DNA of 41,318 nucleotides, taken from Clostridium phage slur17. Below are positions 3,008 to 30,658 of this stretch, piece by piece. The notes below the pieces were generated by a model. It was not told the DNA's origin and ran no database searches. It saw only the letters and a program-made list of their open reading frames with translations. The translations under genes were made by a program, and so were the position numbers. Location of the stretch: sequence record LN881738.1. One strand, written 5' to 3'. Each line of letters opens with the position of its first letter. Positions within the stretch are counted from its first letter, which is position 1.

Positions 3008-3763
3008 TTATAAAATATTCCATCTAGGATTTATTTTTATGCTTTTTATATCCCCTTCCCAGCTAATCTGATTTTCTCCTTCTTCAAGTATGGGAAAGTC
3101 ACTAAAAAGCTTATTATTTTCATTTACAATAATGTTATTTTCTTTGTTTATTCTATATACATTCATCTGTTCGCTATCTATTATTAAGTCGCTTAAAATT
3201 CCATTTTCTGCCACCCCTCTTAGCACTATGCTTTGAGTATTTATTTTTATACTTATGTCCCCTGCTCCTTCTATATAGAGAACAGGTTTTGACTCTCTAT
3301 AGAAATTTGTTATAGTAGCACTCTTTAGATTTAATACATTTAAACTTATAATTTCTTCTTCTGCGTATCTAAAAGGGTAGCAGTCGAATGTTAAAAGACA
3401 TGATGCAAAGTTTTTAAAATTTCTAGTTATATCTAGTTTATTGTTACAGCTTGCTAGATAATAAAAGTCACTATTACTTAAAAAAAGTTTTTTATATGAT
3501 ATATCGCCCTGTAGCCATTTTTTTATTTCTGTTGCAACTTCTTCTATATTACTTTGTCTTGCATCTATATCGCATTCTATTGTAAGCGTAAAATTTTCAA
3601 AACCTTTTTTTAGTAGTAAATCTCCATCTTTGCCTGGCACACTCACTCTTTCAACTTCCATCTGTGGAGCTGATAAGTCGTTTATATTGTATATTTTTAA
3701 ACCAAATTCTCTGCTGTCTCGACCGTTATAAACGAAAAACATAGCTTTATGCCCTCCTCTCAT
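3008..3763 (-). CDS. Distal tail protein (Dit-like)
   Basis: 251-aa ORF directly downstream of the tape measure gene, the canonical Dit position in siphovirus tail modules; call by synteny only. Confidence 0.55.
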   Translation of the reverse strand: MRGGHKAMFFVYNGRDSREFGLKIYNINDLSAPQMEVERVSVPGKDGDLLLKKGFENFTLTIECDIDARQSNIEEVATEIKKWLQGDISYKKLFLSNSDFYYLASCNNKLDITRNFKNFASCLLTFDCYPFRYAEEEIISLNVLNLKSATITNFYRESKPVLYIEGAGDISIKINTQSIVLRGVAENGILSDLIIDSEQMNVYRINKENNIIVNENNKLFSDFPILEEGENQISWEGDIKSIKINPRWNIL

Positions 3764-3862
3764 TTATTATTTTTTAGACATAACTCCGTTTTTGTAGTTA
3801 TATTTTTTACTATAGTCTTTTCAAAAAAGATAAAAGGAAATATAAAAAAGAAAAGGAACATT

Positions 3863-6800
3863 TTATAAAGCTCCTTTTCTTTTTGCTAAGAACAATATTT
3901 CATCAAAAAGATTTTCTATATCTTGTTGTCTATTATTTACAAAGTTTTCTATATTAAGTTTAATACCTGCTTGATTTTCATTAGCTTCATCAGCCTTATT
4001 ATTACTCATTATAGCTGTTTCTTTTCCAGCTTTAAAATCTGTACTTGCAACTATATTAGCTTGTATTTTAGACGTTTCAAAATTAACTGTAGCTTTTAAT
4101 TTACCTGTAAGTTCAGATATATTTTTCTCTATTTTTTCTTTCAAGCCTGGCGTTTCTACATCTATTCCAACGCCGACCCCTTTTACAAGATTTCTACCAA
4201 TTAAATCTCGCATGATTATGGAAGGTGAATGCACTCCAAAGCCGTCTCTAAATCCATCTATAACATTACTAGCAAAATCAAGGACTTGGTCTTTTAACCA
4301 GCCACCCATGCCCGTTATACCTTCCCATAAGCCTCTTACAACATCTTTCCCGATACTCATAATTTTACTAGGCAAATCTTTCAAAGCATCCTTAACAGCA
4401 TTTGCCATATTTTTTCCAGCTTCTCCAGCTTGTTTGACTAAGTTAGTCCCCCAGCTTATGACATTTGAAATGATATTGTCTAGCCATTCTCTAAATTTTC
4501 CTGGAAGCTGGCTAACAGTATTGTATATATTGTTAAAAAAGTTTTTCGCTGTTTCTAAAGCTTTTTTAGATAAATTAACTTCCCACTCCATGACTTTTTG
4601 CATTATATTAGTTAATTTTTCCCATATTTTGCCCGGAAGTTCTGAAAAGAATTTCATTATATTTTCTAAGAATTTGCTTCCTGTTTCTAATGCTTTTTGA
4701 ATTAGATTAGAACCCCATTCCGAAACTTTTCCCATGATATCTGTAAACTTTTCCCATAATTTTCCCGGAAGCTCCGAAATTGGAATTAATACATTGTCAA
4801 CAAATTGATTAAAAATATCTGTTGCCAATTGCTTTAAATTTTCGCCCCAGCCACTTATTGTTTCTACTACTGTATTAAACCATTCCGAAATTCTTTCGGG
4901 TAGCTCTGTAAAAAACTGTGTTATATTTTCCCAAATTGCACCAAAAAACTCTGAAACAGAAACCTTGAAATTTTCGCCCCAAGTTTGAATATTTTGCAAT
5001 ATGATACTAAAAAATTCCGAAATTTTTTCCGGAAGGCTTACAAACCATTCGACAATGCTATTTATTATTTCTGGTAATGTTTCTGTTGCCCAGGCGTACA
5101 GATTAGCTCCTAAATCAACGAAAAAACCAGCAATAGACCCGATTACAAAACCAATATTATATGGAATTTGTTTAAACCATTCGACAATATTATTTATTAT
5201 AGCTGGCATTGTCTCATTAAAGAAACTTGATATTTTTTCTCCTATTTTCCCACATTCTTCTTTTATCTTGTCGCCAATACCCGCAAACCATTTTGGTACT
5301 GTGCTAGTAAAAAAGTCTAAACCACTTTTTAATCCGCTTCCAATTGCATCTCCAATTTTTGACCCAGTCTCTTTGAACCAATTGCTAAGACCGCCGAAAA
5401 TCTCTACAGCTTTATCTTTTATACTTGAAAAACCTTGCTGTGCCTTATCTCCAAACTCTGTAAAAAAGTCTCCAGCTCCTGCAAATCCTTCACTTATTTT
5501 ATTTCCAAGACCACCAAAAAATCCACCTATATTTTCAATTCCTTCTTTGAATTTATCTTTTACTTTAGAGAAGAAATCACCAATAGAATTTTTTGCACTA
5601 GCTAGCCACTCATTTATATTTTTGTCTGTATCTCTTAGCCATTTTTCTATTCCACCAAAAAAACCACCAATGCCATTGAACCCTTTTTTTATACTTTCAG
5701 ATAATTTACTAGCTGAATCCCCAACTTTAGGGACTGTTCCTGTTACGAGTTCATCACTGACAAGTTCTAAGCCTTCAACAGAAGTTTTAACATCATCTAT
5801 GCCATCAGCATATTCTTCTAGTTCTCCAGCGTCCAGTTTGGCAGAACCAGAATCCAAAGAGGAACTTTTAGCAGATGAGTCTACATCCCCTCCACTTGCG
5901 CTAGAAGTATTAGCTTTTTCTTTTAGTTTCTCATATTCTTCTAACTTTTTCTTCAATCTATCAAGCTCTTTTTCTTGTGCTGGTATAATCTCTTTTAAGT
6001 TAATAGCTTCCTTTACAGCTTCCTGGATAGATTGCTTTTTAGAGTTAACTCCATTTAACAAACTATCTGCTAAACTCTGCCCTGCATCCTGCCAATGCGG
6101 GTTATATTCACTTAAAAGTTTTATAATTTCTTCTGAATTTTTTTGTAAAAGTAGCCTTCTCGCTTCATTTTGAATATTTGTCTCTTCTAAAAGTTCACTA
6201 AAATATTTTTCAATTTCTTCTTTTTGACTAGCATTAGACTCTTTTATCAATTCAAGTTTTTTACTTTCTGCTTCTTTTTGATTGTCGTACTCTTCTTTGT
6301 ACTGCTCTTTTTTGTTACTAGCTTCTGTTTTTATATTTTCAATCTGTTCTTTTAATCTGTTTTTTTCTTGTTGCCTTTGTTCATCTAATAATTTCTTCTG
6401 TCTATCTGATTGTGCTTCTGATATTTCTTTTTGTATTTTTTCTCGTTCTTTTTGATTTTTAGCTGTTGCTAGTTTCCTGTCAAGGTCGCTTATTTTTTCA
6501 TTGTACGCTTTCTCTTCTTCTGCTTTTTGTTCTTCTTCAATTTGCTTGTCTATGGCGTCAATTTGTTCTTGTATAGCATTAGTTTTCTCATTTGTTTCTG
6601 TATCTAAATACTTTAATTTCTCATTGTATTCTTTTTCATAGACCTTTAATCTATCATTTGATGCCTTTTCCTCAACTTTTAGTCTTTCATCAAGCGCTTT
6701 TATTTGTATATCTTTTTGACTTTCATATTGATTTTTTAATGCTGTAGTTATAGCCTCGCAAATTTTTTCAAATTTACTCTTGTTGGTCTCAAGATTTTTT

Positions 6801-22284: not shown

Positions 22285-22857
22285 CTATAAAAGACTTCCA
22301 CTTTCAAAAAGCATTTCGGCAAGTTCTTTCAATGCTTCCTTGTGTTTATAATGAACATTACTGCGACTACATTTAATCTTTGAGGCAATTTCTTCATTAG
22401 AAAGTTTACTTGCGCCATCATAAAAATACATAAATTTTATAATTTGTTGCTTCTCTTCTGTAAGTTCACTTATGTAAATATCCATTAGTCTCAATCTATA
22501 TTCTATAAAATCAATTTCACTTTCTTTAAATGATATTTTATCCTCATTATTCATAATCATTTCATCTATGCCCTTCGGGCTAGAATGTATTTTAAACCCT
22601 AGTTCATTGAAATTTATCTCTCTATAAAATTCTTTATCTTTTAAAAAATCTATCTCTTTTCTTAGAATATCTACTCTTCTTTTCTTATTTCCAAGTTCAA
22701 TTAAATATTCTTTGGTTTCTTCAACTAAGCAAGAACTTACGTTTTTTTCTTTGTCTTTTTTATACTTTCTTTCGCATGATTTACAGCAAAATCCGTTTTT
22801 TGACTCTGTAAAAAATGACTTACCGCACCATGAACAAATCCTTTTCTTTTTTGCCAT
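22285..22857 (-). CDS. Putative transcriptional regulator with zinc ribbon and sigma-70 region-4-like HTH
   Basis: N-terminal CSWCGK...CCKSCERK zinc ribbon; C-terminal SNEEIASKIKCSRSNVHYKHKEALKEL resembles a sigma region 4 HTH. Confidence 0.5.
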   Translation of the reverse strand: MAKKKRICSWCGKSFFTESKNGFCCKSCERKYKKDKEKNVSSCLVEETKEYLIELGNKKRRVDILRKEIDFLKDKEFYREINFNELGFKIHSSPKGIDEMIMNNEDKISFKESEIDFIEYRLRLMDIYISELTEEKQQIIKFMYFYDGASKLSNEEIASKIKCSRSNVHYKHKEALKELAEMLFESGSLL

Positions 22858-22868
22858 AAATTCACTTC

Positions 22869-23051
22869 CTATACCATCAATTTTTCTATAATTGTCTTTT
22901 TAATAATTTCAACATTTTCATATTCTTTTATCTTTTCATTTTTGCAAACTCTAGCATCTATTAAAGTGCTAAAACTTTCTTTATCCATTCTTAAAGTTCT
23001 TGAATTAAAATATATAACATTGTATTTAATATCTTTCTTCATTGCTAACAT
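22869..23051 (-). CDS. Hypothetical small protein
   Basis: 60-aa ORF co-oriented in the early operon; overlaps the upstream gene by 26 nt. Confidence 0.3.
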   Translation of the reverse strand: MLAMKKDIKYNVIYFNSRTLRMDKESFSTLIDARVCKNEKIKEYENVEIIKKTIIEKLMV

Positions 23052-23391
23052 CCTTTACATACCAGCCAGTTCTTGTAGGTCTTCCTCTCCGAATTACAGG
23101 GTACAAATCTTTAACATTTAAAAAATTTTCTGCTTCATCTATAGCCATTTCTTTTATTTCACCTGTTTTTGCATTTACAAGTCTTACCTTTTTACGTTCT
23201 TTTTTCTGATGCTCTCTAATTTTCAATGCACTACATGCCTTAGTAGAACTAGCCAAAACCTTTTTATTTCCATGAACTTTAACCGGTTTTATGCAACAAT
23301 ATAACGCTAAATAATTTTTAAAAGTTAGGTCATCTTCCATAAAATTCAGATTAACTGAACCACTAAAAATTTTTTCTACTTTTTTAATCAT
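23026..23391 (-). CDS. Hypothetical protein with AT-hook-like RRGRPTR motif
   Basis: 121-aa basic protein; GRP core near the C-terminus. Confidence 0.4.
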   Translation of the reverse strand: MIKKVEKIFSGSVNLNFMEDDLTFKNYLALYCCIKPVKVHGNKKVLASSTKACSALKIREHQKKERKKVRLVNAKTGEIKEMAIDEAENFLNVKDLYPVIRRGRPTRTGWYVKDVSNEERY

Positions 23392-23482
23392 TTAATCACC
23401 TACTTAAAAAGGTATATCGTCGTCTATAGCCTGGAAACCTTGCGGGTCTAAGCCTCCCGGCTCGAACTTACATTCTTTTTCA

Positions 23483-23815
23483 TTATCCTCTTTTTTTATA
23501 ATCTAAAAATTTAATTTTATTAGTATGAACTTTTGTATAAGTTCTTTTCTCGCCATCTTTTTCATAAAGATTAACCCTTATAGACCCTTCAACCGCTACT
23601 AACCTACCTTTATCTAAATTATTAGCACATACTTCTGCTAACTTCCCCATCACCTCAATAGGTATGAAATCAGTTTCCTTAGTTCCATCTTTTTTAACAT
23701 AATCTCTATCTACTGCTATTGTAAAAGTAGATACAGCTGTTCCAGAACCTGGTATATATTTCAATTCGGGGTCTCTTGTTAGTCTACCAATTAGTGTAGT
23801 GTTATTCATTTCCAA
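23483..23815 (-). CDS. ssb: Single-stranded DNA-binding protein
   Basis: 110 aa; N-terminal TLIGRLTRDPELKYIPGSGTAVSTFTIAV is the classic SSB OB-fold signature. Confidence 0.8.
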   Translation of the reverse strand: MEMNNTTLIGRLTRDPELKYIPGSGTAVSTFTIAVDRDYVKKDGTKETDFIPIEVMGKLAEVCANNLDKGRLVAVEGSIRVNLYEKDGEKRTYTKVHTNKIKFLDYKKRG

Positions 23816-24320
23816 CCTCCCCCCTTACAATTCTCACATTCTCTTAAATTAACTCTATATTCATATATACGACCAATAAAAAATGCAAATATAATCAAAA
23901 TTATCATTCCTAAAAAAATCATTATATTTCGTCATTCCTTTCATCTACTATAATGTCAAATCCACATTTACACTTTCTATGAAATGTATACTCATCAACG
24001 ATTAAACTTCCTTCACCTTCTCCAAGTTCATCACTTCCACATTTTGGACAAAAGCAATACATTGCCGATAGTTTTAAAACATTTTTCATTTTCATATTTA
24101 TATACCTCCATTCGTCATTTAAAAATTATTCCATTTCGCTTAATTCATCTACGCAATTTAAGCAGAAATACAGTGTAAAAACTAAACCTAGAGCCTCTTT
24201 TTCATACTGTACATGGTTATTTTCTTCTATATTTATTGTTCTTTCACAGCAACAACACTGCACAAATTCACTCATATTTAAGCACCTCATTTATTCCTAC
24301 AAGGAAATTATTCATTCAAC

Positions 24321-24632
24321 TTAACCCTTTTTTATAGGTATAGAATTAAGACATTTTTGCTTAATTCTAATGCTTTTAGTTCTGTTATAAATCGCTATCG
24401 CTTTCCTTGTTTCTTTATTTAAAATACAATCTATAAACAAGCTATATACATCTAATTCACTTTTATACTCTTTCAACTGTTCTTCTAAAATTTGAATCAA
24501 TTCTTCATTGTTACTCATAATACGCTCATAATACCTTATCTTATCGTCCCTTACTTTGTTTTCTTCTTTCAAACATTCAATATTTCTATCCACCTGCTCC
24601 TGGGAAACGATTAAGTATTTACCTATTTTCAT
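24321..24632 (-). CDS. Hypothetical protein
   Basis: 103-aa coiled-coil-rich ORF in the early operon. Confidence 0.4.
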   Translation of the reverse strand: MKIGKYLIVSQEQVDRNIECLKEENKVRDDKIRYYERIMSNNEELIQILEEQLKEYKSELDVYSLFIDCILNKETRKAIAIYNRTKSIRIKQKCLNSIPIKKG

Positions 24633-24848
24633 TGCCCAGCCTCCTGTTCCTTTTCCTCTCTTATTTTCTTAAGAGCTAACTCAATTAAATCTATTTTACT
24701 AAGATGAGGATTTTCTTCTTTTAATTCAAGAGCAACATTACCAACATATTCCCCACGTTCAATTGCTCCCATTTTCGTTATATCTTTATACAAAATAAAC
24801 ACTCCTTTTTAAAAGAGGCTGGTTATTTAGTCCAGCCTCTTCAATTTT

Positions 24849-25571
24849 TTATGCTATTATATCTATATTTTTAATACCTTCTAATTTCTTCTCTAAGTAC
24901 TCTTTTATATTTTTTATTGCTTCAAGTCTCCATGCTCCACCATCTGCTTCGATTAACTTAAATGCAATGCCCTCTTTTACTCTAAAGATAAATTCACTTT
25001 CGGGCTGGTCTACTTCCGCAAAAGTTCTGTAAGGTTTTAACTTAACTCTGTTAGGCAGGATTACATCCTCTACACTTGCTACACCTGTAGACATTGTGAC
25101 TACTTGTGATACTCCATCATCTTGCACAGTTTTTACACTTGTTTCTTTTACATTTCCGCTTACTTTTAAAAGCAGTTTCTTATCTTCTGTATCTACGAAA
25201 GAGGATTGCAACATAACGTTAAATTGCTCTGCATCAAGCGAACAATCGAAATTAACATGAGGTAATAAAGCTCTACTTTCAATGTAAATATCCCTCTTGC
25301 CACTTTCAAGTAGTTCAGAACACAATATAACACTTTTAGGGCTTTCAACTTGAACCATAAGTTTTCCACTTTTAAGCTTACTATCAATACTTGATTTTAT
25401 ATATCCTATTAAACCATCTAAAGTGCTTAGCCTAACTATTTCAGCTGGTCTAGGATGAACCTCAATCAAGGGGTCAGTCGTATACGTAACCCCATTGATT
25501 TCTCTTGTTTCTATTTTTCTTGCTCCAACTTCCATTACCCTGTTAAATAAATCTGTTAACATATTAAACAC
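24849..25571 (-). CDS. Hypothetical protein (possible replication/recombination function)
   Basis: 240 aa; same operon as SSB; no motif recognised. Confidence 0.45.
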   Translation of the reverse strand: MFNMLTDLFNRVMEVGARKIETREINGVTYTTDPLIEVHPRPAEIVRLSTLDGLIGYIKSSIDSKLKSGKLMVQVESPKSVILCSELLESGKRDIYIESRALLPHVNFDCSLDAEQFNVMLQSSFVDTEDKKLLLKVSGNVKETSVKTVQDDGVSQVVTMSTGVASVEDVILPNRVKLKPYRTFAEVDQPESEFIFRVKEGIAFKLIEADGGAWRLEAIKNIKEYLEKKLEGIKNIDIIA

Positions 25572-26063: not shown

Positions 26064-26489
26064 TTACAGTAAGTCTGTTATTTCTAGCAAACAATTTGGG
26101 CATACATCTATACTTCCTAGTTGGTCAGAAACGGATTGATTGTTGTTATAATTTTCTAAAACTGGCATTGAGGTCAATTCTTCCGAACTGTCTACGATTG
26201 CCCCGCAATTATCACAATGTATCCTCCTTTTTAGTTTTGAACCCTCTTTTGTACCTTGTTCTATCGCCTTTGAAATTTGATTACCAATACCAAATTTTAA
26301 ACAAGTTTTTTCTGCTTCTGATACAATTCTCGCTTTACTATTTTTTAAAATTTCTAAAGTTTCTATAGCATCAATTTCTGAACATTCGCCACCTATGATA
26401 ACATCCATTAAATAGCTGTCTTTTGCTCCTATTACATCTTCATATTCAATGTACTCGTCGATAGTACTACATAAAATAACTTTTATCAT
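26064..26489 (-). CDS. Hypothetical protein with C-terminal zinc ribbon
   Basis: 141 aa; HCDNCG...CPNC motif. Confidence 0.45.
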   Translation of the reverse strand: MIKVILCSTIDEYIEYEDVIGAKDSYLMDVIIGGECSEIDAIETLEILKNSKARIVSEAEKTCLKFGIGNQISKAIEQGTKEGSKLKRRIHCDNCGAIVDSSEELTSMPVLENYNNNQSVSDQLGSIDVCPNCLLEITDLL

Positions 26490-26738: not shown

Positions 26739-26910
26739 AGAAACAACCTCCTGACTCCTATTGCGAATATATTTATATTATAGTGCGTAATAAGGGGCAA
26801 GTCAATAACTTTTACTAATTTATTTTCGCAAGACTACGCCCCAATGCGTTTTTTTGCGTTGACTTACGGGCAACTTTACTGTAAAATTAAGCTATGAAAG
26901 GAGTTTTAAA
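26739..26910. promoter_or_regulatory. Divergent promoter/operator region of the lysogeny switch
   Basis: 172-bp gap between divergent genes; GCAAGTCAA (around 26787) and its inverted counterpart TTGACTTAC (around 26863) are candidate operator half-sites; SD AAAGGAG precedes the XRE ATG. Confidence 0.4.
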
Positions 26911-27296: not shown

Positions 27297-27694
27297 ATAT
27301 GTACATATTTATTTTTTAGTTTTTTGCTTTAAATACAGATAAATAATCTCTAATATATCCTTATCCCCTACTTTGTCCAACATTTCTTTTATTTCTTCTT
27401 TCAACCAAATCATCCCCCTATATGCAAGTAGAATAATACATTCTTAAAATTTGTAAAAAAATAACTTACAATTTTAATTATACCCCCTTTTGTTCGATAT
27501 TACAAGAGCACATGTACGATTTTTTGTCGCAATTAAACATTTATACTACAATAATAGTACCTTTTATCAAATTTTGCTAGTGGAAAATAATTCCAATTCA
27601 AAATACATTGAATTTTCTTACATTAGGAAAGTTCAGGGTCAATTTTTTTAACCTTGCGATTTTCCATTTGGTATAAGTTTTATATTTTCACATC

Positions 27695-27760
27695 AAAAAG
27701 TCACGCAAGTAGGAATATATATATATATATATATATTAAATCCTACTTGCGTGACTTTTT
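27695..27760. terminator. Bidirectional hairpin with (AT)n loop, copy 1
   Basis: 15-bp perfect stem GTCACGCAAGTAGGA (27700-27714) / TCCTACTTGCGTGAC (27741-27755) around a 26-nt AT-repeat loop; A5 before and T5 after. Confidence 0.55.
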
Positions 27761-27947
27761 GTTCTTAGATGCAAATTTCTAGTTGCTCTACTAACTCTAT
27801 TTCTTTTTCAATTTTAAATCCTATGTCAAATTCATTGTTTAAAAATGCCTTTTCAATTTCATCTAATTTACTCAATAACCTCTGTTTTCTAGTTTTTATA
27901 GCATTTCTTTAAATATTGTATGCTAATTATGTTTATTTTAATTGATG

Positions 27948-28077: not shown

Positions 28078-28425
28078 TTAATCAACTACAATTAATTCTG
28101 CCCCAGCTGGTAAATTAATTTTTATAAGTTCTAGTAAAAGTTGTTTTGAAAGCTCCTCCCTTAAATCCTGTTCTTGATATTGAAGTTCAAAAAAGTACTT
28201 ATCAACTTCTTCATCATAATAAAAATTATACTCATGATATGCCGAATTTTCTTCTAACAATTCTCTGTATCCAAGATTAATGCCTATAGGTATAAATTTA
28301 TCTTTATTTTTTATATCTTTTATGAAATTATCATAGTCATTAAAAGCTCGTATTAAAAGCTCTGAAAACTCATAACTCACACTCACTATATATTTATTTT
28401 TAACTTTAATATCTAATTCAAACAT
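28078..28425 (-). CDS. Hypothetical protein, second gene of the helicase operon
   Basis: 115-aa acidic protein 46 bp downstream of the helicase gene on the same strand. Confidence 0.5.
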   Translation of the reverse strand: MFELDIKVKNKYIVSVSYEFSELLIRAFNDYDNFIKDIKNKDKFIPIGINLGYRELLEENSAYHEYNFYYDEEVDKYFFELQYQEQDLREELSKQLLLELIKINLPAGAELIVVD

Positions 28426-28471: not shown

Positions 28472-30658
28472 CTACATAAAACCTTTTAATAACAATAGTT
28501 TTTCATCTTCATCTAAAGAGTTCAACATCCTGTCTTTTGTATATTTTATAGCATTTTCTAAACTCTTATCTTTTTCGTCTAATTCTAAATCTTTTTTTAT
28601 GTCATCTACAGTTATATATCTTTTTATATTATTAAGTTGTATTCGTTTTTTTTCAAACTGGCATGATATAGGATTTATATTTTTATAAAAAAACATAGTT
28701 TCTATATCATGCCAGTTACTATATTTTTTCTTTTCTATAATAAAAATTCCATTCAGTGTAACGCTTAGCTTTTTAGTTGTTAAATCCCAGTTTTCCCCTA
28801 AAATTGTTCTTAAGTCGTTACTTAACTCTTGTAAATGCAATTCTTTATAAGATGTTCCAATTCCAAACAATTTATCTATATAATTAAATACTGTAACTTG
28901 AATAAGTTCATCATTTAAAAACTCTGGATATTCCTCTTTTAATTCTCTATATATTAAAGTATTTATTTTATTAAATATTACCCCACGTCTTTTGTTTGCT
29001 GTATTCGCTAGTTTCCAAGCAAGGTCTAAGTCGAACTTATTATCTAGTACATAATTAGAATATAGTTCTAACATGCTATTACTTTTACTTTTCTTTACCA
29101 AATTATGTATGTCATACGCTCTGTAAGCCTCTAAGCACCCTTTTGAACTTAGTTTCATATCATTATGATACTGCATTAGTGAAAAGCTCTTAGAATCGCT
29201 TTTAATCTGTCTATAACCTACTAGAATTTCTTTATGTTCTTTTAAAATTTCTCTTGTTGCATCTTTAATTTCTTTTACAACTTTCTTGTACTCTTTTAAC
29301 TCTTTTTCATTTGTGCCAACTTCTTTAGCATCAGTTATATTAACATTTTCAAAATATTCTTCTAATAACACTTTAAAACTTTGAATTGTTCTTGTATTGT
29401 AATAGTTGCTGTAAACTTGACTTTTTATATATAATTTATCTACTTTATAGCAATTATCTTTTGTACAGTAGTACACATTTGAGTCTATGCGAATTGGCGT
29501 TGCATTTATTCCAACTGTTTCAAACTGTAACATGTGTTTAGATACTTTGTTATAAGCATCTTTTAAGATAGTTGCTTTTTCTATATTTTTGTTAACTAGC
29601 CATTCAATTTTGTATACATTGCACTCTTCTTCATATTTATTGAATATGTGTACATTTACTTTTTTTAAGTTTCTAAACCTTGCAACATACTGTTTTATAG
29701 CTCCAACATCTTTTATATTAACAATAATTATATCTGTGATATCTTTGTTGTTTATATTTACACCAGCTAGGATTGTTGTTGTATTTAAAAGCGTTTCATA
29801 GTCTTTCATGTCTGAATTTTTAACTATTCTATTGTACAATTCATTCTCTTCTTTTCCATCTGCATATACAACTCCAACTTTTTTGTTCACTGAATCTCTT
29901 ATAAATTCTAATGTTGATATATCATTCATCAACATGGCGCTGTTTTTAGATTTATTTATTATGTTAATCATTTCAGTAAAATTTTTATTGTCAAAGTCGT
30001 TGTACAATTTAACTTTATATTCTGTTTTTTGCTTTTGAGTGTACTCTATTATGTAGTCATATATTTCAAATTCAAGTTTTGTTGGTGTTGCTGTAATGTC
30101 TATTCTTCCTTTGCACTTAGACATTATATTATTTAGATTTTTTATTGCTTTTCCTCGATATGCATCTGTATAAGTTTGATGTATTTCATCAACTACAATT
30201 ATGTATTCACTTAAGTCTGTGTTTATAAGTTTTTCAGTTTTATCCCAAGTCATTACAACTAAGTTACCATTTTTAAATGCTTCGCTAACAGGTATTTTGT
30301 CATATGCTCCTGGTATATCATACTCGTGCATTGCCTGCTCCACATTTGAAGCATTTGGAAGTATGAATAACGCTTTTGTTTTTAATTTTTTTAATGTATT
30401 TATAAAGCTATAACTTTTTCCTGCTCCTGTCGGTGCAATAAACAGGGTTTTCCCGCCATTTATCGCGTTGGCTATAGCCGTTTTAATTCCTAGTTTTTTT
30501 TCGTTTATATATTTTTTTATTTCATATGTTTCATGTCTATTGAAATTTGAATAATTTTCTTTTTCATGCTCTGCTCTTTCAGCGCTACATTCTTCTAAAA
30601 ACATCTTATCTATATTATTTTTATTAACATTCTTCATCTTTATCCCTCCAATTTCCAC
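28472..30658 (-). CDS. SF2 (DEAH-type) helicase with uncharacterised C-terminal extension of about 350 aa
   Basis: Walker A FIAPTGAGKSYSF, Walker B/motif II VVDEIH, motif III ITATPT, motif VI-like QYVARFRN in the first ~380 aa; C-terminal half has no motif I recognise. Confidence 0.8.
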   Translation of the reverse strand: MEIGGIKMKNVNKNNIDKMFLEECSAERAEHEKENYSNFNRHETYEIKKYINEKKLGIKTAIANAINGGKTLFIAPTGAGKSYSFINTLKKLKTKALFILPNASNVEQAMHEYDIPGAYDKIPVSEAFKNGNLVVMTWDKTEKLINTDLSEYIIVVDEIHQTYTDAYRGKAIKNLNNIMSKCKGRIDITATPTKLEFEIYDYIIEYTQKQKTEYKVKLYNDFDNKNFTEMINIINKSKNSAMLMNDISTLEFIRDSVNKKVGVVYADGKEENELYNRIVKNSDMKDYETLLNTTTILAGVNINNKDITDIIIVNIKDVGAIKQYVARFRNLKKVNVHIFNKYEEECNVYKIEWLVNKNIEKATILKDAYNKVSKHMLQFETVGINATPIRIDSNVYYCTKDNCYKVDKLYIKSQVYSNYYNTRTIQSFKVLLEEYFENVNITDAKEVGTNEKELKEYKKVVKEIKDATREILKEHKEILVGYRQIKSDSKSFSLMQYHNDMKLSSKGCLEAYRAYDIHNLVKKSKSNSMLELYSNYVLDNKFDLDLAWKLANTANKRRGVIFNKINTLIYRELKEEYPEFLNDELIQVTVFNYIDKLFGIGTSYKELHLQELSNDLRTILGENWDLTTKKLSVTLNGIFIIEKKKYSNWHDIETMFFYKNINPISCQFEKKRIQLNNIKRYITVDDIKKDLELDEKDKSLENAIKYTKDRMLNSLDEDEKLLLLKGFM

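Follow-up and report, generated by a model that had tools for sequence, protein, structure and literature searches.

The window analyzed here, a 41,318-nucleotide stretch of Clostridium phage slur17 (LN881738.1), is oriented as the reverse complement of the record of the Clostridioides difficile phage phiCD38-2 (HM568888 / NC_015568), and the early genes therefore lie on its minus strand. Within these early genes, the space between gp45 and the ssb gene (gp49) is almost wholly filled by three short genes, gp46, gp47, and gp48 (Table 1). The 2.8 kb around the three open reading frames (ORFs) are 100% identical to phiCD38-2, and likewise to its near-identical relatives CDSH1 and AR1075-1. The three-ORF region is also identical in a 41,319-bp C. 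difficile plasmid (NZ_CP037803), which fits the plasmid-like lifestyle known for the phiCD38-2 prophage (bioRxiv 10.1101/2023.08.24.554564). The genes are tightly packed at their downstream end: the stop codon TAA of gp47 (23924..23922) shares a base with the ATG of gp48 (23922..23920) in a TAATG overlap, and the stop codon TGA of gp48 (23808..23806) overlaps the ATG of ssb (23809..23807) in an ATGA overlap.

Table 1. Features of the gp46-gp48 region and its surroundings, in window coordinates.
Feature	Position	Strand	Description
gp46	24126..24275	-	49 aa, MSEFVQCCCCERT...FCLNCVDELSEME; ends in CLNC; phiCD38-2_gp46; phrog_2569
gp47	23922..24095	-	57 aa, ...YCFCPKCGSDELGEGEG...RKCKCGFD...; DUF3797 (PF12677); phrog_3221
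gp48	23806..23922	-	38 aa, MIFLGMIILIIFAFFIGRIYEYRVNLRECENCKGGGWK; putative single-pass membrane peptide with CENC; phrog_6827
ssb (gp49)	23483..23809	-	next gene; PF00436, E = 2.5e-28
gp46 Shine-Dalgarno	24283..24288	-	GAGGTG, 7 nt before the ATG at 24275; read from the sequence
gp47 Shine-Dalgarno	24104..24109	-	GGAGGT, 8 nt before the ATG at 24095; read from the sequence
ssb Shine-Dalgarno	23820..23815	-	GGAGGT, inside the gp48 coding sequence
Promoter candidate, sigma-70-like	26777..26805	-	TTGACT-17-TATAAT, 11/12 matches in a consensus scan; best in the region; heads the gp40 to gp53 block
Promoter candidate before repressor gene gp39	26859..26887	+	consensus scan; divergent from 26777..26805 (-)
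gp41	26064..26489	-	early small protein with a CxxC mini-domain
gp45	24321..24632	-	phrog_5442
Palindrome	27694..27761		CAAAAAGTCACGCAAGTAGGA ...(AT)n... TCCTACTTGCGTGACTTTTTG, A-run and T-run at the flanks
728-aa ORF	28472..30658	-	past the repressor gene and the palindrome

Of the 515 nt on the sense strand, 455 belong to the three ORFs, all of which start with ATG and are 38 aa or longer. When this stretch was shuffled 2000 times with its dinucleotides preserved, the sense strand held 0.21 such ORFs on average, and no shuffle contained three of them or reached the observed coverage. The three ORFs are genuine genes, far beyond chance. An earlier note on this DNA had proposed three short minus-strand ORFs upstream of ssb, and all of them are present: its membrane peptide of about 38 aa overlapping the ssb start is gp48, and its zinc-ribbon protein of about 56 aa with a GGAGGT Shine-Dalgarno sequence is gp47, a DUF3797 protein one residue longer. 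The same note regarded the ORFs as unannotated and as missed by a 60-aa cutoff. They are indeed absent from the 60-aa ORF list, but the public records carry all three, and the word unannotated has to be withdrawn. In GenBank and RefSeq (HM568888, NC_015568), gp46 is listed as hypothetical and gp48 as a 'putative membrane protein'; gp47 is hypothetical in GenBank and a 'DUF3797 domain-containing protein' in RefSeq, DUF3797 being a Pfam family. The records of phiCD111 and phiCD146 list these genes too, and the PHROG families phrog_2569, phrog_3221, and phrog_6827 are all labeled 'unknown function'. The three ORFs are already known: they are annotated, and the families to which they belong are catalogued with no function assigned. 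Conservation at the amino-acid level in related phages, which the note had suggested as a check, was found for all three, together with an excess of synonymous change that is only marginal for gp48.

The three genes belong to a single-direction block running from gp40 to gp53, which can reasonably be read as a leftward early operon. The best promoter candidate in the region heads this block, and a scan for minus-strand terminator-like sites found none between that candidate and gp46-gp48. Neighbors in the block include an RTP-like 'replication terminator' protein (phrog_997), several unknowns, ssb, and a sigma-like regulator. No Rfam match was obtained in the gp46-gp48 region, and the stretch from 22800 to 25000 holds no meaningful repeat; an explanation of the region by an RNA or a repeat was dropped for these reasons.

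Several observations were made on the genes flanking the three ORFs. The gp45 protein is basic, heptad-rich, and coiled-coil-looking, with a length of 103 to 121 aa across phages. Its gene precedes the gp46 homolog in phiCD38-2, phiCD111, phiCD146, phiCD6356, pCD5401_3, and the syntenic contig L012, and is separated from it by one extra gene in Hain-Saunders-2022a and AR1074-1; gp45 may be a functional partner of gp46. On the other side, the SSB of phiCD38-2 is only 108 aa long and ends in ...FLDYKKRG. Some 26 C-terminal residues are missing from it, among them the acidic DD(x)DIPF tip; all six relatives compared have kept this tail. Partner proteins of SSB usually dock at the acidic tip. The gene after ssb is also missing in phiCD38-2 relative to phiCD111, which together with the short SSB suggests a deletion. 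Farther away, a long, near-perfect palindrome sits between the repressor gene (end 27264, +) and a convergent ORF (28078..28425, -). Folded as DNA, it reached -31.3 kcal/mol (z = -11 versus shuffles), and it gave sub-threshold matches to miRNA-hairpin Rfam families on both strands; it resembles an intrinsic terminator acting in both directions, or is possibly an origin-related hairpin. The 728-aa ORF lies beyond it. At the equivalent position, L012 carries an ORF of 722 aa that matches ResIII/DEAD helicase domains, and the 728-aa product may be the replicative helicase of the plasmid-prophage.

The gp46 protein matched the phrog_2569 profile over its full length (E = 7.2e-26, residues 1-49) and has no Pfam family. 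An alternative start, the ATG at 24290, would give a protein of 54 aa; all homologs start at the second ATG, which yields the 49-aa form. In 12 homologs, the invariant residues are C7, C10, C38, and C41, plus I14 and Y24, and the conserved motif is CxxC-x27-CxxC. The earlier note had described a Cys-rich protein of about 49 aa by its 'CCCC' run. This description holds for the presence of a Cys motif and fails for the run itself, the two middle Cys of which are T/A/N/D and R/N in other members; the run is a local quirk, and only CxxC...CxxC is kept. The family is tiny, with about 5 true relatives found among 1.84 billion cluster representatives in a profile search, and 13 phage records carry gp46. 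Selection on the gene is moderate (pN/pS 0.35 to 0.48; p = 0.004 to 0.04 for the synonymous excess). The AF2 model (pLDDT 86.4) comprises a short strand, a CxxC knuckle, a long hairpin at residues 21-38, and a second CxxC that opens a C-terminal helix; its top Foldseek matches were small ribosomal proteins and the PARP1 zinc finger, none of them significant (E >=0.48). The four invariant Cys most likely hold one structural zinc ion. All 12 members of the family are acidic, with a net charge of -3 to -9 and a pI of 4.05 to 4.8. This consistent acidity argues against nucleic-acid binding and favors a protein partner, and gp46 probably binds a protein rather than a nucleic acid.

A CxxC-(20 to 35)-CxxC mini-domain is also present in other early small proteins, namely gp41 and the products of L013 3443..3631, L052 7761..8033, and L030 3819..3974, the homology of which to gp46 is weak or unproven. 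Homology of gp46 to the gp41 C-terminus (CDNCG...CPNCL) was considered and rejected as evidence, hhalign giving a probability of 8%. In L030, the mini-domain protein (51 aa) is encoded directly upstream of a DUF3797 gene, mirroring the gp46-then-gp47 order.

The gp47 protein scored 64.5 bits against PF12677 (gathering cut-off 25.1), covering model positions 1-48 of 48, and matched phrog_3221 with E = 2e-32. Across 14 sequences down to 42% identity, C16, P17, C19, G20, G25, G29, R40, C42, C44, and G45 are invariant, and C14 is conserved within C. difficile phages only. Homologs with 54 to 94% identity occur in phiCD111, phiCD146, Hain-Saunders-2022a, and phiCD6356, and in the myophages phiCD119, CDMH1, and phiCD418; those with 40 to 50% identity are found in other clostridial prophages and viral contigs. 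The exact gp47 protein was present on 658 contigs. The gene is under purifying selection (pN/pS 0.19 to 0.33; p = 2e-6 to 1e-4), and the pI of the homologs ranges from 4.4 to 8.7. In the AF2 model (pLDDT 87.8), a helix at residues 3-12 is followed by strands at 29-33, 37-42, and 47-51, with Cys knuckles at 16-19, before the first strand, and at 42-44, between the second and third strands. The modeled layout is that of a zinc ribbon with an N-terminal helix, and gp47 is predicted to be a structural zinc mini-protein. A sequence search of the PDB returned RPB9-type 1qyp as the best match, followed by aIF2-beta, Nop10, HypA, eS27, and RPA12, all with E >=0.06 and covering the CPxCG motif only; fold searches gave no significant match for gp47.

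The more distant DUF3797 genes lie in prophage replication/recombination modules, alongside RecT, SSB, DnaB/DnaC-like loaders, and methyltransferases. A methyltransferase was near DUF3797 in 3 of about 16 loci outside C. difficile phages. The neighbors of DUF3797 vary in these loci, and a conserved one was considered and set aside as too weak, an unrelated small membrane protein lying downstream in 2 of the roughly 16. In the viral contigs L032, L035, L036, L038, and L039 (about 3450-4390), DUF3797 forms the N-terminal domain of proteins of 126 to 138 aa, whose extension of about 75 aa is conserved (...GVYEV.IHG..HK.LP..ELKE..G.KR....K.E.WLN..EGR.W...) and had no Pfam or PHROG match. In the literature, mentions of DUF3797 merely list the family, and no function was found. 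A B. cereus DUF3797 protein has been detected by mass spectrometry via its CPxC peptide (PMC8305198), indicating that members of the family are translated. Natural variants of gp47 also occur in C. difficile genomes. A zinc ligand is lost in P0004 (C19R) and in P0007 (C42Y), and P0004, P0006, P0007, P0009, and P0011 jointly include G20E, an internal 12-residue deletion, and a frameshift, P0011 being one that carries a deletion. Most of these variants were on a single contig, and P0006 was on 16; sequencing errors or the decay of prophage copies may account for them.

The gp48 protein matched phrog_6827 over its whole length (E = 2.6e-24), and its first 31 or so residues aligned to the N-terminus of the 111-aa profile phrog_8001 (E = 3.2e-5). 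The mean Kyte-Doolittle value is 3.04 for residues 2-17 and -1.24 for the tail. Since BLAST masked the hydrophobic half, the family was collected by an HMM search of all ORFs in the compared loci, which yielded 16 distinct sequences from two phage lineages. The membrane segments of these proteins vary but stay hydrophobic (FLGMIILIIFAFFIG, ILASVLLIGISFVVG, ILGGLMLLGIGIVVG, MLASVILVIGSFIAG), and the juxtamembrane motif GR[IV]YEYR[LV]NLKECENC is near-invariant in the 16 sequences. A variable hydrophobic segment joined to a fixed juxtamembrane motif is the pattern that a genuine bitopic membrane protein shows. The basic residues come after the membrane segment, and by the positive-inside rule the CxxC tail is predicted to face the cytoplasm. 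With so short a gene, selection reached only marginal significance (p = 0.03 to 0.09 over the first 28 codons). Besides the short forms of 37 to 41 aa, the family includes a 79-aa form and a 111-aa form. In L017/L018 (4174..4535), tandem paralogs of 79 aa (with several CxxC) and then 41 aa follow DUF3797. The 111-aa form is phiCD119 gp59 (L007 2674..3009, phrog_8001), which has a membrane segment, a heptad-rich stretch that is coiled-coil-looking by eye, and a Cys-rich C-terminus.

Alternatively, gp48 might be a T-rich spacer with no protein function, open by accident in an AT-rich genome and serving mainly to carry the ssb ribosome-binding site, or a membrane-damaging peptide resembling the type I toxins of C. 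difficile. Past CENCKG, the residues change from one ssb allele to another and their codons contain the ssb Shine-Dalgarno sequence, the selection statistics are weak, and PGAP made no call in the relative Hain-Saunders-2022a, all of which would suit a spacer; a short hydrophobic peptide with a charged tail would suit a toxin. Both ideas are countered by the 16 distinct homologs from two lineages, with their always-hydrophobic segment and near-invariant GR[IV]YEYRxNLKECENC. Moreover, gp48 behaves as a discrete cassette, with start/stop overlaps in three contexts (gp47/ssb, gp46/YopX, and L013), and is absent as a unit from phiCD6356. As for the toxin, gp48 was rejected as the type I toxin of the phage on the basis of position and operon context: that toxin has been identified as gp33, in the 1.9-kb parA region of phiCD38-2 (bioRxiv 10.1101/2020.03.04.976019). 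In addition, such a toxin would be expected to have its own promoter and an overlapping antisense RNA; a consensus scan found no promoter of its own for gp48, and no Rfam or antisense signal was seen. We consider a spacer or a toxin highly improbable, and a genuine membrane protein remains the preferred reading of gp48.

In 24 C. difficile phage loci, the start of the gp48-family gene is the last base of the DUF3797 stop codon. These coupled loci span phiCD38-2-like siphophages and phiCD119-like myophages, in which the DUF3797 proteins are only 54% identical. The recurrence of this start/stop overlap in 24 loci and two lineages indicates that gp47 and gp48 form a coupled pair; the conserved coupling of DUF3797 with a membrane peptide in C. 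difficile phages is a modest new point of this study. Among the loci compared, no gp48 partner of DUF3797 was found outside C. difficile phages. Nor is the pair obligatory. In phiCD6356, gp46 and gp47 are present without gp48, and gp47 and ssb are 14 nt apart. AR1074-1 and pCD5401_3 have gp46 only. L012 carries gp46, gp48, YopX, and ssb in this order and no DUF3797; L013 has a gp48-family gene and gp46, also with no DUF3797; and phiCD119 has gp47 and a gp48-family gene with no gp46. Since one or two of the three genes are missing from close relatives with the same gene order, gp46, gp47, and gp48 are dispensable accessory cassettes that move independently in an otherwise syntenic early region.

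Profile searches for function against Pfam, PHROGs, NCBIfam, and PADLOC returned only DUF3797 and unknown-function PHROGs. NCBIfam was empty for gp46-gp48, the defence components of PADLOC-DB gave 0 matches for the three proteins at E up to 1, and PDB sequence and fold searches gave nothing pointing to host takeover or anti-defence. These searches bear on the idea, raised in general terms by the earlier note, that at least one of gp46-gp48 is a host-takeover or anti-defence factor, blocking a host protein such as a defence component or one involved in replication or cell division. Such a role would fit their small size, their location in an early operon, and their patchy, accessory-like distribution. 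Acidity is common among phage inhibitors that bind proteins, and the gp46 family is uniformly acidic (pI 4.0 to 4.8), besides being very narrow, with its handful of representatives in the 1.84 billion searched. However, PADLOC, Pfam, NCBIfam, PDB, and fold searches revealed no similarity to any characterized inhibitor, and genes placed among replication genes could equally well serve the phage itself. AcrIB2 was considered as one of the three proteins and rejected, acrIB2 being located elsewhere: the validated anti-CRISPR of phiCD38-2, a fusion homolog of phiCDHM13 gp28-gp29, comes from another gene, which directly follows the lysis genes and adjoins the lysogenic conversion region (PMC10732046). 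A host-takeover role for any of the three genes is, in our judgment, fairly unlikely. A more specific form of the idea, in which gp47-gp48, possibly with gp46, constitute an unrecognized membrane-tethered early module that neutralizes a host membrane-associated function (defence, cell division, or superinfection by other phages), is decidedly unlikely.

The reading we favor, and hold to be somewhat more probable than not, is that gp46-gp48 are real accessory early genes that encode zinc mini-proteins (gp46 and gp47), a coupled gp47-gp48 membrane pair, and a protein-binding gp46. They would belong to the early, replication-proximal operon of phiCD38-2, a temperate plasmid-prophage, and would share with ssb a transcript starting at the promoter opposite the repressor gene. 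Translation of gp48 would be coupled to that of gp47 through the TAATG overlap, and translation of ssb to that of gp48 through the ATGA overlap. Made together, gp47 and gp48 would probably act as a membrane-tethered zinc-ribbon pair. The gp46 protein would fold as a knuckle, a beta-hairpin, and then a helix around one structural zinc, and, being consistently acidic, would bind a protein partner. Gene order and overlap are what suggest an interaction between gp47 and gp48, each of which also occurs without the other (phiCD6356; L012, L013). Whatever is said here of the three proteins' zinc binding, membrane topology, physical contacts, or targets is prediction throughout.

As they stand, gp46-gp48 matter little, being publicly annotated genes of a well-studied phage. 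The practical value of the analysis lies in a cleaner description of them: CxxC-27-CxxC rather than CCCC for gp46, CPxCG...CxCG for gp47, and the acidity of gp46. The conserved pairing of DUF3797 with a membrane peptide also suggests that both should be studied together. Should one of the proteins prove to inhibit a host target, it would join the very few early functions so far characterized in C. difficile phages, which are of interest for phage therapy and for the effects of prophages on toxin production.

Among known systems, phi29 offers an analogy in which gp47-gp48 would organize the DNA replication of the phage or plasmid-prophage at the membrane, as p1 and p16.7 do. The two genes are directly upstream of ssb and translationally coupled to it, and distant DUF3797 genes are likewise found in replication/recombination modules. 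On the other hand, DUF3797 lies several genes from ssb in phiCD119 and L010, the genes are dispensable in close relatives, and the gp48 tail has only 21 residues. The layout of p16.7 consists of a membrane segment, a coiled coil, and a C-terminal DNA-binding domain, and that of phiCD119 gp59, the long relative of gp48, resembles it. As a p16.7 homolog, however, gp59 was rejected, because a PDB sequence search showed no similarity and gave no match at E <0.5; a structure of the p16.7 C-terminal domain is in the PDB. In phi29, p1 and p16.7 are early membrane proteins with anchoring roles for the replication machinery. Like gp48, whose anchor would span residues 2-17, both are small products of early genes that lie with replication functions, are anchored in the membrane by their N-terminus, and come from a phage that infects a Gram-positive bacterium (PMC4974454). 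They differ from gp48 in that there is no sequence similarity and that gp48 has neither a coiled coil nor a DNA-binding domain; furthermore, phiCD38-2 is not a protein-primed replicator, and the likeness is one of analogy only. We regard a replication-organizing role as quite improbable and retain the reading of accessory early genes.

The closest comparison for gp48 is the phiCD119 gp59 family (phrog_8001), with which it shares the N-terminus and the position directly after DUF3797; it differs as a minimal form, in which the membrane segment and short tail stand without the coiled-coil-like stretch and the Cys-rich C-terminus. For gp46, the comparison is with treble-clef zinc fingers, in which an N-terminal CxxC knuckle is followed by a beta-hairpin and by a second CxxC at the start of the C-terminal helix. 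The AF2 layout of knuckle, hairpin, and helix makes the arrangement of gp46 treble-clef-like, although the layout is a predicted one with no significant Foldseek match. The gp47 protein resembles the classical C4 zinc ribbons (TFIIS/RPB9, aIF2-beta, Nop10, eS27, HypA) in its two knuckles about 22 residues apart, the first of them CPxCG, and in its three predicted strands. It differs from them in its second knuckle, which is CxC and not CxxC, and in its N-terminal helix, and, with matches at motif level only, it is not demonstrably homologous to them. Within PF12677 and phrog_3221, some members outside C. difficile phages bear the C-terminal extension of about 75 aa, which gp47 does not have; in its invariant CPxCG...R-x-CxCG, gp47 is a plain member of the family and shows no difference from it.
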